From NCBI RefSeq assembly GCF_003334405.1, contig NZ_QOWM01000003.1: 64,000 bases of DNA; one strand, 5' to 3'. The stretch comes from Escherichia coli. Lineage in GTDB: Bacteria; Pseudomonadota; Gammaproteobacteria; Enterobacterales; Enterobacteriaceae. Position 1 is the stretch's first letter. Every line of letters starts with the position of its first letter. The translations under genes were made by a program, and so were the position numbers. A model generated the notes under the pieces. The model saw only the letters and a program-made list of their open reading frames with translations, was not told where the DNA came from and ran no database searches. Below are positions 1 to 18,493 of this stretch, in pieces.

Positions 1-258
1 ATGGAGCTGAAGGGGCTGATTTACAATGAAGTACATCTTCATGCACCTCATGCAGAACAACTGGAAGGTTTTACATTACAGCAGAGTGCGGAGTTGTGTT
101 ATCCGATGCGTCTTCGCGGTGATGAAGCCGTCGCATTATTGCAGATGACGCCGTTTGCCTGGCGTGCGAAGCCAGAAGTCTGGCAAACACTGGCAGCAAA
201 AGAAGTGTTCGACTGCCAGACGGACTTTAATATTCACCTCTGGCAGCGTTCTTATTAA
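1..258 (+). CDS. rlmA: 23S rRNA m1G745 methyltransferase RlmA, 3' fragment (N-terminus lies before window start)
   Basis: ORF track 85 aa running off the 5' edge, ending HLWQRSY; stop overlaps the convergent mntP stop; identity from sequence memory and synteny. Confidence 0.8.
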
Positions 259-821
259 CCGTGGAAGTGCGTCCAGAGGATCTGGACGCCGATGCCGATC
301 AGCACCAGCCCGCCGAGAATTTCCGCTTTTTTCCCAATAATTGAGCCGATAAAGCGACCAACCATCATCCCTAATGTTGACATAATCAAGGTTGCACAAC
401 CAATGGCCAATGCGGTCGCGATAATGTTGACCTGCAGGAAAGCAAGACCAACACCCACAGCCATGGCATCCAGGCTGGTGGCAATCGCGGTGGTTACCAG
501 TAGCCAGAAACCGTGTCGACGGCGCGGCTCTTCATCTTCATCATCTGCGCCACGAAAACCCTCAATAATCATTCGCCCGCCGAGGAATATCAGCAGCACA
601 AACGCAATCCAGTGGTTCCATTCAAGGACAAACCGGCTGGCTAACATGCCCATTCCCCAGCCGATCAGCGGCGTCAGGGTTTCGACGGCACCAAAAATAA
701 GGCCGGTTCGCAATGCTTCAGAAAATTTCGGTTTATGGAGGGTGGCACCTTTACCGATTGATGCAGCAAATGCATCCATCGACATACCAAACGCAAGAAG
801 AACAGTAGCAGTGATATTCAT
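255..821 (-). CDS. mntP: Mn2+ efflux pump MntP (188 aa)
   Basis: ORF track 255..875; start moved to internal ATG ([12 protein letters not shown]...) to give the 188 aa protein; hydrophobic multi-pass sequence; riboswitch-like leader upstream. Confidence 0.9.
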
Positions 822-879
822 GACAATGTCCTGACCGGGGTATCCATAAAACACATCATCGCCCCCAGCAAACATGCAT

Positions 880-1060
880 ACATGAACAACAAGCCGTGAT
901 GGTTTTCGCGTTCATGCAGGCATAGCGATTGATGTGCATATGGTCTCGCCTGACTGAAAGTATTCAGTCCGTACGTGCCACGTTTTGCAACGAGTATGTT
1001 GACACGTACATTTCCGGAATCTGGAAATCGGCTACTCCCCAAATGAGGGCGCAACCTTAA
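880..1060 (-). promoter_or_regulatory. yybP-ykoY-type Mn2+ riboswitch in the mntP 5' leader (boundaries approximate)
   Basis: Reverse complement of 1032..1042 reads TTGGGGAGTAG, the conserved riboswitch loop motif; long untranslated leader before mntP; known mntP regulation. Confidence 0.55.
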
Positions 1061-1183
1061 CATATTTTGAGAATATAAAACAACTGTTGGAATATATTAT
1101 TTCATTGCTTTATTGATAACGATTTTCATTTGGATTTATATATCAATGAAACGTTAAAATAAATAACAAATAAGGGAAGAGGT

Positions 1184-1243
1184 AATATAGCCTAAGCTAT
1201 GTCTGATTATTAAAAATACACTAAACATAGCTTTGGCTAAATT
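1184..1243 (-). promoter_or_regulatory. Candidate MntR operator palindromes in the mntP promoter region
   Basis: ATAGC-N4-GCTAT palindrome at 1187..1200 and CATAGC-N4-GCTAA at 1225..1240, resembling MntR boxes; AT-rich region upstream of the riboswitch. Confidence 0.4.
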
Positions 1244-1249
1244 CATAAC

Positions 1250-1708
1250 TTATTGAGTTGAAACGAGAAGCTTATAAATTTTTTCCAGATCGTCGATATT
1301 TCGAACGCGGATTAACAGCCGACGCTGTTCTAATTGCATCACCAACACGCCATCTTCCGACAAGTTCATCGCTTTGATTCGGCTATATTCAATCCAGACA
1401 TTGGCGAAGAAAAAACCTTTTTGTTTAAAGATGATCTTCGGAACGCGGATCCAGAATATATAAAAACCCATCAGAGCCAGTGCGCTTAATAACCATGTCG
1501 TTATTAACGCACCATGATTCGTGACGTTGTTATAGATAAGAATGACAATCAATCCGACGAAGATAACGCTATCGATGCGACCACGCCGGAGCAAAGGAAT
1601 TGCCAGCAGGGTGGGGCCGTTACGGCGGGGCATGATGAACTGATCGTAGATCGCGAAGGCCAGGAGTGCGGCGATGAAAAGAATCAGTACCAGGTCCGTG
1701 ATTGTCAT
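1250..1708 (-). CDS. yobD: UPF0266 inner membrane protein YobD
   Basis: ORF track 152 aa; hydrophobic; GGAGGA Shine-Dalgarno (rc of 1713..1718) before ATG. Confidence 0.9.
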
Positions 1709-16762: not shown

Positions 16763-18448
16763 TTGAAGAAGGTTTGGCTTAACCGTTATCCCGCGGACGT
16801 TCCGACGGAGATCAACCCTGACCGTTATCAATCTCTGGTAGATATGTTTGAGCAGTCGGTCGCGCGCTACGCCGATCAACCTGCGTTTGTGAATATGGGG
16901 GAGGTAATGACCTTCCGCAAGCTGGAAGAACGCAGTCGCGCGTTTGCCGCTTATTTGCAACAAGGGTTGGGGCTGAAGAAAGGCGATCGCGTTGCGTTGA
17001 TGATGCCTAATTTATTGCAATATCCGGTGGCGCTGTTTGGCATTTTGCGTGCCGGGATGATCGTCGTAAACGTTAACCCGTTGTATACCCCGCGTGAGCT
17101 TGAGCATCAGCTTAACGATAGCGGCGCATCGGCGATTGTTATCGTGTCTAACTTTGCTCACACACTGGAAAAAGTGGTTGATAAAACCGCCGTTCAGCAC
17201 GTAATTCTGACCCGTATGGGCGATCAGCTATCTACGGCAAAAGGCACGGTAGTCAATTTCGTTGTTAAATACATCAAGCGTTTGGTGCCGAAATACCATC
17301 TGCCAGATGCCATTTCATTTCGTAGCGCACTGCATAACGGCTACCGGATGCAGTACGTCAAACCCGAACTGGTGCCGGAAGATTTAGCTTTTCTGCAATA
17401 CACCGGCGGCACCACTGGTGTGGCGAAAGGCGCGATGCTGACTCACCGCAATATGCTGGCGAACCTGGAACAGGTTAACGCGACCTATGGTCCGCTGTTG
17501 CATCCGGGCAAAGAGCTGGTGGTGACGGCGCTGCCGCTGTATCACATTTTTGCCCTGACCATTAACTGCCTGCTGTTTATCGAACTGGGTGGGCAGAACC
17601 TGCTTATCACTAACCCGCGCGATATTCCAGGGTTGGTAAAAGAGTTAGCGAAATATCCGTTTACCGCTATCACGGGCGTTAACACCTTGTTCAATGCGTT
17701 GCTGAACAATAAAGAGTTCCAGCAGCTGGATTTCTCCAGTCTGCATCTTTCCGCAGGCGGTGGGATGCCAGTGCAGCAAGTGGTGGCAGAGCGTTGGGTG
17801 AAACTGACCGGACAGTATCTGCTGGAAGGCTATGGCCTTACCGAGTGTGCGCCGCTGGTCAGCGTTAACCCATATGATATTGATTATCATAGTGGTAGCA
17901 TCGGTTTGCCGGTGCCGTCGACGGAAGCCAAACTGGTGGATGATGATGATAATGAAGTACCACCAGGTCAACCGGGTGAGCTTTGTGTCAAAGGACCGCA
18001 GGTGATGCTGGGTTACTGGCAGCGTCCCGATGCTACCGATGAAATCATCAAAAATGGCTGGTTACACACCGGCGACATCGCGGTAATGGATGAAGAAGGA
18101 TTCCTGCGCATTGTCGATCGTAAAAAAGACATGATTCTGGTTTCCGGTTTTAACGTCTATCCCAACGAGATTGAAGATGTCGTCATGCAGCATCCTGGCG
18201 TACAGGAAGTCGCGGCTGTTGGCGTACCTTCCGGCTCCAGTGGTGAAGCGGTGAAAATCTTCGTAGTGAAAAAAGATCCATCGCTTACCGAAGAGTCACT
18301 GGTGACTTTTTGCCGCCGTCAGCTCACGGGATACAAAGTACCGAAGCTGGTGGAGTTTCGTGATGAGTTACCGAAATCTAACGTCGGAAAAATTTTGCGA
18401 CGAGAATTACGTGACGAAGCGCGCGGCAAAGTGGACAATAAAGCCTGA
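16763..18448 (+). CDS. fadD: Long-chain fatty acyl-CoA synthetase FadD (561 aa, TTG start)
   Basis: ORF track 16697..18448; start placed at TTG ([13 protein letters not shown]...) preceded by GAGG 7 nt upstream; AMP-binding signature [12 protein letters not shown] present. Confidence 0.9.
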
Positions 18449-18466
18449 GCGTTAAGTCAGTCGTCA

Positions 18467-18493
18467 GACGCCGGTTAATCCGGCGTTTTTTTT
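18467..18493 (+). terminator. Rho-independent terminator after fadD
   Basis: GACGCCGG-TTAAT-CCGGCGT hairpin followed by eight T. Confidence 0.8.

Follow-up and report, generated by a model that had tools for sequence, protein, structure and literature searches.

The 428-bp intergenic region upstream of mntP, the gene for the manganese efflux pump of Escherichia coli, raises two connected questions: which regulatory elements it holds, and whether an 81-codon open reading frame (ORF) running through it is a gene. We are highly confident that this is the multi-level regulatory region of E. coli mntP, comprising MntR operators, a promoter, and a Mn riboswitch, and that the 81-codon ORF is spurious. 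The riboswitch and the MntR sites of mntP, and what they do in Mn detoxification, are already known from work published between 2011 and 2025. The biology reported here adds nothing new, and the value of the analysis is in annotation, in that an experimentally validated E. coli Mn riboswitch scores below the gathering score of its Rfam family.

Coordinates refer to the window, that is, the whole 64-kb stretch of DNA that was analyzed. The gene order on the minus strand is manZ, yobD (1250..1708), the 428-bp intergenic region, and mntP (255..821), with rlmA on the plus strand, convergent with mntP. The mntP coding sequence specifies a 188-aa protein (NCBIfam MntP equivalog, 414.6 bits), and its ATG start codon (821..819) is preceded by the Shine-Dalgarno (SD) sequence AGGA (832..829), the two together occupying 819..832 on the minus strand. 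The preliminary description had bounded the element at 880-1243; the functional unit extends from about 1242 to 819, and a boundary at 880 leaves out the conserved expression platform (868..829) as well as the start codon. The mntP control region is 100% identical to that of E. coli K-12 MG1655 and was found in 5423 of the 5426 complete E. coli genomes searched, with no match in the remaining 3. Among the 5426 matching places of the leader, one is in a record for a plasmid, not for a chromosome, and one genome has two places. In the RefSeq annotation of K-12, there is no feature between yobD and mntP. In NZ_CP032667.1, the locus tag D8B36_RS09725 is missing between those of yobD (RS09730) and mntP (RS09720), and this skipped tag suggests that a leader feature was called once and later withdrawn.

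The comparative set consisted of the mntP loci of 80 Enterobacteriaceae species. Two deposits are labelled as coming from other bacteria: on a contig assigned to Chryseobacterium sp. 18061 (CACSKA010000003.1), the mntP locus is typical of enterobacteria and agrees, in its leader and in MntP identity (82%), with that of Citrobacter sp. 18056, which belongs to the same project, and the leader ORF of E. coli is encoded on a 501-bp contig labelled “Acinetobacter nosocomialis.” Contamination or mislabelling seems to be behind both.

The suggestion that the mntP leader contains a Mn riboswitch of the yybP-ykoY type originated from a conserved loop motif, TTGGGGAGTAG, of which the 64-kb window holds a single copy (minus strand, 1042..1032), against an expectation of 0.03. 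A covariance-model search of the leader had been proposed as the check, and its outcome was divided. The Rfam scan of the whole window at gathering thresholds yielded the sRNA sroD as the sole match and no Mn riboswitch. A local scan by E-value (701-nt search) detected RF00080 at 952..1048 on the minus strand with E = 8.9e-10 and 41.6 bits, a significant match that nevertheless falls below 45 bits, the curated gathering score of the model in Rfam 15; this cutoff is an operational one and does not mark any feature of the biology. When 19 orthologous leaders were tested, RF00080 matched all of them at the same position and on the same strand, with scores of 35.5-51.1 bits, 8 of which pass the cutoff; the E. 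coli leader thus lies within a single score distribution that straddles the threshold. In the consensus structure line of RF00080 (Rfam 15), the 5' strand (P1.1/L1/P1.2) is unpaired and there is a long 3' insertion, and the E. coli match stops at 952, short of the 3' strand GGCGAGACC. The unpaired 5' strand of the model and the end of the match at 952 may contribute to the sub-threshold score. Elsewhere in the window, the sroD match (RF00370) is full length, at 18407..18492 on the plus strand (115.2 bits, E = 1.4e-22). In four orthologous loci, cspA-thermoregulator (RF01766) matches of 123-132 bits were found on the minus strand downstream of rlmA; these correspond to the cold-shock-protein gene beside rlmA (cspE in NZ_CP032667.1), which is located outside the 64-kb window.

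Given that the RF00080 match is borderline by the curated cutoff, independent evidence was sought. The aptamer (936..1046, minus strand) has the yybP-ykoY four-way junction with helices P1.1, P1.2, P2, P3, and P4; in this family, P1.1/P1.2/P2 and P3/P4 make up the two coaxial legs. Derived by hand, the helices are P1.1, CAUUUGG/CCAUAUG; P1.2, GCC/GGC; P2, AUUUCC/GGAAAU; P3, UACGUG/CACGUA plus UCGUU/AACG, with the L3 loop; and P4, GACUGAA/UUCAGUC. L1, GGAGUA (1038..1033), faces GAGA (947..944), and L3 is UCAACAUAC (1002..994). Across 72 distinct orthologous sequences, 95.7% of the cells of the four-way junction are paired (33 pairs in 6 helices), compared with 25-48% in controls with slid partners, and compensatory, double-sided changes are present in 19 of the 33 pairs, with at least one in each helix; none of 500 shuffles equalled the observed pairing and covariation. 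The loop sequences, GGGGAGUAG in L1 and GUCAACAUAC in L3, are invariant in the same 72 sequences, and both loops align to the RF00080 consensus at high posterior probability. An unconstrained minimum free energy (MFE) fold recovers P2, P3, and P4.

These observations bear on whether the leader merely resembles yybP-ykoY, being a degenerate RNA or one of different specificity, and is not a Mn riboswitch. Such a reading could draw on the score below the gathering level and the empty default scan, on the 11 of 19 orthologous leaders that are likewise below the cutoff, and on the lack of a riboswitch annotation by PGAP in the mntP leader. The low E-value and the continuity of the ortholog scores across the cutoff speak against it, as does the architecture, in which all six canonical helices of the four-way junction covary around invariant L1 and L3 loops. 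Furthermore, the Mn response of this exact RNA has been published, from reporters and isothermal titration calorimetry (ITC; PMC9603457), co-transcriptional probing (PMC12153347), and work on its interplay with Rho (PMC11647493), and the published T7A1-promoter fusions with the leader intact gave the opposite of lost Mn-dependent regulation. We consider mere resemblance exceedingly improbable, and the identification of the leader as a Mn riboswitch, as originally claimed, is borne out by the family match in all 19 leaders, the covariation, and the published function.

The aptamer also fixes the start of the transcript. The transcription start (+1) on the minus strand was placed at 1046, with a resulting 5' UTR of 225 nt, because this position alone satisfies the published numbering (PMC12153347), in which nt 11 is an A in L1 and nt 48 is an A in L3. 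Deletion of +1..+19 abolishes switching (PMC11647493), and a start at 1046 is consistent with that construct; the placement draws on secondary sources and internal consistency. Immediately upstream is a core promoter block (1047..1084, minus strand) that is near-invariant in 76 orthologs and in which the spurious ORF has its ATG (1063..1061). Within this block, we infer a -35-like hexamer, TTGTTT (1083..1078), and an extended -10 element, TGnTAAGGT (1062..1054). Another candidate, with a -10 element ending at 1091, came from a consensus promoter scan and was dropped as it misfits the start at 1046. The primary mapping of the transcription start and of the MntR and Fur footprints is reportedly due to Waters 2011 and Dambach 2015.

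Downstream of this start, conservation of the leader falls into blocks. The aptamer (1042 to approximately 932) is conserved, the linker that separates it from the platform (882..930, minus strand) is indel-rich and shows no conservation, and a further conserved block (878..826) ends at the SD. The 3' strand of P1.1 and the bases downstream of it form a switch strand (CCAUAUGCACAUCAAUCGC; 925..943, minus strand) that can pair either with the 5' strand of the aptamer, as P1.1, or with a platform strand, GCGAUGAUGUGUUUUAUGG (844..862, minus strand; nt 185-203). The alternative helix between 943..925 and 862..844 consists of 18 bp, with 95.2% pairing and compensatory changes in 9 of the 18 pairs across 68 sequences, and the MFE fold forms it unprompted. 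P1.1, which uses the same strand, covaries as well, and the present analysis thus finds two mutually exclusive, conserved pairings that share one strand, which identifies the mntP leader as a switch. The alternative partner UUUAUGG corresponds to nt 197-203, in agreement with the “riboswitching point” that published work puts near 205 nt (PMC12153347).

A local hairpin, CUGGGG (868..863)/CCCCGG (840..835), lies just upstream of the SD (835..868, minus strand) and is 99.3% paired, with one pair showing compensatory change in one clade. Constrained folding of the ON and OFF states revealed no difference in SD exposure, and in published probing the ribosome-binding site was “dynamic,” with no clear Mn-dependent change (PMC12153347); the gating of the SD given below is accordingly a proposed one. 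Three conserved G/C-rich strands are present in the leader, namely UUGGGG in the 5' strand of L1 (1042..1037), CUGGGG in the platform (868..863), and CCCCGG (840..835), the last of these 2 nt upstream of the SD; in principle, they could exchange partners. A three-strand exchange, in which the L1 strand released by platform capture without Mn would pair with CCCCGG beside the SD, is conceivable and, in our estimation, rather doubtful; the comparative evidence speaks neither for nor against it, and the published probing did not resolve such an exchange. A different pairing suggested by the MFE fold, between AGUAGC of the L1 strand and codons 5-6 of mntP (GCUACU), was rejected, given that GCTACT is present in just 14 of 80 orthologs and varies there as third positions ordinarily do. 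In published work, Rho ends transcription inside the leader, and the riboswitch, once bound to Mn, counteracts this in part (PMC11647493).

The mechanically predicted 81-codon ORF (818..1063, minus strand) runs across these RNA elements, and the preliminary description had dismissed it as a gene, a judgment with which the analysis agrees. Its ATG (1063..1061) lies 15-17 nt upstream of +1, within the invariant block of the putative core promoter, and its TGA stop is forced, because mntP begins with ATG-AAT (Met-Asn). The frame is open for at least 77 codons in just 7 of 76 orthologous loci, four from Escherichia and three from scattered genera; it amounts to 30 codons in E. albertii and 0-39 in most others. 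Comparison of the ORF by tblastn exposed in-frame stops and frameshifts, with similarity limited to the L1 and L3 blocks and slipping between frames. Even within E. coli, a 1-nt insertion in the linker (at about 895, AAAACC to AAAACCC) shifts the frame; it is carried by 6 of the 40 genomes in an evenly spaced E. coli sample, O55:H7 included, and there PGAP calls a different “hypothetical protein,” of 40 aa. The 81-aa sequence occurs in databases, from many genomes, solely as “hypothetical protein,” and an NCBIfam search with the 81-aa product returned no family match. Judged by these comparisons of sequence, the 81-codon ORF is not a gene.

The alternative would be that this ORF, or a shorter in-frame upstream ORF (uORF) ending at the same place, is translated as a leader peptide or small protein coupled to mntP. 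The frame is intact in Escherichia, its stop codon and the start codon of mntP share the sequence ATGA, the platform block that holds in-frame ATGs is conserved, and deposits as “hypothetical protein” exist from many genomes, along with the 40-aa PGAP variant in some strains. Translation from 1063 is, however, at odds with a transcript that starts at 1046, and the disruption of the frame in most genera, in E. albertii, and by a single nucleotide within E. coli, together with an unconserved middle of the ORF, a stop codon imposed by the Met-Asn start of MntP, and the lack of any protein family match, leaves this alternative with minimal credence. A short platform uORF of 13 residues with the ATGA overlap was considered separately and rejected: only 25 of 71 orthologs have a frame ending at the overlap, 9 of these using GTG as the start codon, and spacers differ in length by amounts that are not multiples of 3. 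The literature was also searched for a uORF or leader peptide of mntP, and nothing relevant came up.

The 64-kb window holds exactly two copies of the core TAGC-N4-GCTA, where 0.5 would be expected per 64 kb, and both lie upstream of the mntP promoter in a stretch of 52 bp, at 1188..1199 and 1228..1239. The earlier reading of two palindromes of the ATAGC-N4-GCTAT type thus stands for the cores; in full, there is one exact copy (1187..1200), and the second, TTAGCCAAAGCTAT on the minus strand (TTAGC-N4-GCTAT), has one mismatch, at the outermost base. As putative MntR operators, the distal site (operator 1) is an 18-bp inverted repeat at 1225..1242 centered at -187.5 from +1, and the proximal one (operator 2), with the exact palindrome, is located at 1185..1202 and centered at -147.5. 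The centers are 40 bp apart, and 22 bp separate the two 18-bp sites (1242..1225 and 1202..1185). Across orthologs, the core of box 2 is kept in 73 of 76 and that of box 1 in 41 of 76, the inter-box spacing ranges from 40 to 45 bp, and in both palindromes the half-sites are conserved and the 4-nt spacers are free to vary. The published account (PMC11275975, citing Waters 2011) places two MntR sites in front of mntP, separated by more than 20 bp and at a distance of about 170 bp from the promoter; the palindromes match it in number, separation, and distance. Their identification as MntR operators, as claimed at the outset, is supported by this agreement in spacing and distance, with the identity of the sites drawn from secondary sources and internal consistency. 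In addition, mntP induction was found to be MntR-dependent in a strain lacking the riboswitch (delta-RS; PMC11647493).

The position of these palindromes, which begin about 10 nt past the yobD stop codon, also invites the view that they form a long hairpin at the 3' end of yobD, which would terminate transcription or govern RNA stability, or that they are the sites of another factor. The two boxes are mutually complementary, giving rise to weak covariance matches to microRNA-precursor-like families on both strands (1173..1254), and yobD is followed by no predicted intrinsic terminator. Yet each box is palindromic by itself, with conserved half-sites around a free 4-nt spacer, the signature of a dimeric DNA-binding protein; a hairpin between the boxes would be broken in about half of the genera, in which box 1 is degenerate and box 2 intact, and the spacing between them varies. 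The hairpin would also lack a G+C-rich stem and a U-tract, and the geometry is that of the published MntR sites (PMC11275975). We regard this view as very unlikely and retain the MntR operators as the preferred interpretation. Prediction of intrinsic terminators from yobD to the mntP promoter returned none, so that the sequence leaves room for transcripts of yobD to continue into the leader of mntP.

Two further observations concern the same stretch. The microRNA-precursor matches at 1173..1254 (mir-282 at 25 bits, and others) are artefacts, because the mutually complementary MntR palindromes can be drawn as one long hairpin. A 30-codon ORF (MNLAKAMFSVFLIIRHSLGYITSSLICYLF) at 1154..1246 on the minus strand spans both MntR boxes within the AT-rich region, and is probably a chance ORF.

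The preliminary description counted two layers of control, the riboswitch and MntR. Both are supported, and the count is too low, since published work brings in Fur, H-NS, and termination by Rho as well. Fur regulation of mntP has been published (PMC8632737, PMC11647493), and a block that is strongly conserved across genera, AAATGAAAATCGTTATCAA (1111..1133, minus strand), is a candidate Fur box situated between the MntR palindromes and the promoter; its alignment to the Fur consensus GATAATGATAATCATTATC, at 1115..1133 on the minus strand, has 14 of 19 matches and is unremarkable as a score, with 43 sites in the window scoring at least 13. The upstream region (1047..1249, minus strand) is AT-rich, at 73% AT compared with 50.6% for the window. 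This tract is compatible with the published silencing of mntP by H-NS, which is relieved by MntR and Fur (PMC8632737).

Taken together, these elements suggest the following scheme. The far-upstream MntR operators (-187.5 and -147.5) and the Fur-like box within the AT-rich tract would control a sigma-70 promoter that starts transcription at 1046, with Mn-loaded MntR, and Fur, relieving silencing by H-NS, as the literature indicates. In the resulting transcript, binding of Mn2+ would dock L1 (GGAGUA) on L3 (CAACAUAC) and stabilize helix P1.1. Without Mn2+, the platform strand (862..844) would capture the 3' strand of P1.1 into the 18-bp alternative helix; with Mn2+, this capture would be blocked, the platform around the SD (832..829) may then allow more translation, and termination by Rho within the leader would be suppressed in part. 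The 81-codon ORF is a by-product of a frame left open across the RNA element.

The consequences for annotation follow from the score. RefSeq has no riboswitch at mntP because 41.6 bits is below the gathering score, and pipelines that apply gathering thresholds for this reason miss the leader in all E. coli genomes sampled. Into the resulting gap, ab initio gene callers place the spurious 81-aa “hypothetical protein,” or its 40-aa counterpart in frameshifted strains. Inclusion of enterobacterial mntP leaders in the RF00080 seed, or a lower cutoff, would fix both problems.

Comparison with known systems places the region among described regulators. The Mn2+ riboswitch of E. coli mntP was reportedly characterized by Dambach et al. 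in 2015. The RNA in the window is the same element as the published riboswitch in the 5' UTR of E. coli mntP (yebN; RF00080; PMC12153347), identical in sequence to that of K-12 and sharing the four-way junction, L1, L3, the P1.1 switch helix, the translational platform, and the downstream Mn exporter; there is no biological difference, and the sole discrepancy is the score, which at 41.6 bits falls short of the gathering level of 45. Riboswitches of this family sit in the 5' UTR of genes for Mn exporters, whether MntP, TerC, or P-type ATPases. In all 19 species, the riboswitch occupies the same position directly upstream of the Mn exporter gene mntP. The other yybP-ykoY member in E. coli, the alx (PRE) riboswitch, has the same L1 motif and is likewise a translational ON switch of a Mn exporter, but it differs from mntP in that its junction is three-way, its L3 is divergent, its platform includes an intrinsic-terminator helix, and it depends on pH (PMC12153347). 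The alx locus is outside the window. As for MntR, the operators of mntH and mntS presumably resemble those of mntP, with the inverted repeat (A)TAGC-N4-GCTA(T) within an 18-bp site. At mntS, the sites are paired, as they are at mntP. Whereas the mntH and mntS sites overlap the promoter and repress, the mntP sites are found about 150-190 bp upstream and serve in activation, which is reportedly achieved by counteracting H-NS (PMC11275975, PMC8632737). In Bacillus subtilis, MntR likewise activates the Mn exporter genes mneP and mneS through multiple upstream sites; there, however, the sites are closely spaced and bound cooperatively by four dimers beside the promoter, whereas those of mntP are 40 bp apart, center to center, and far from it (PMC11275975).
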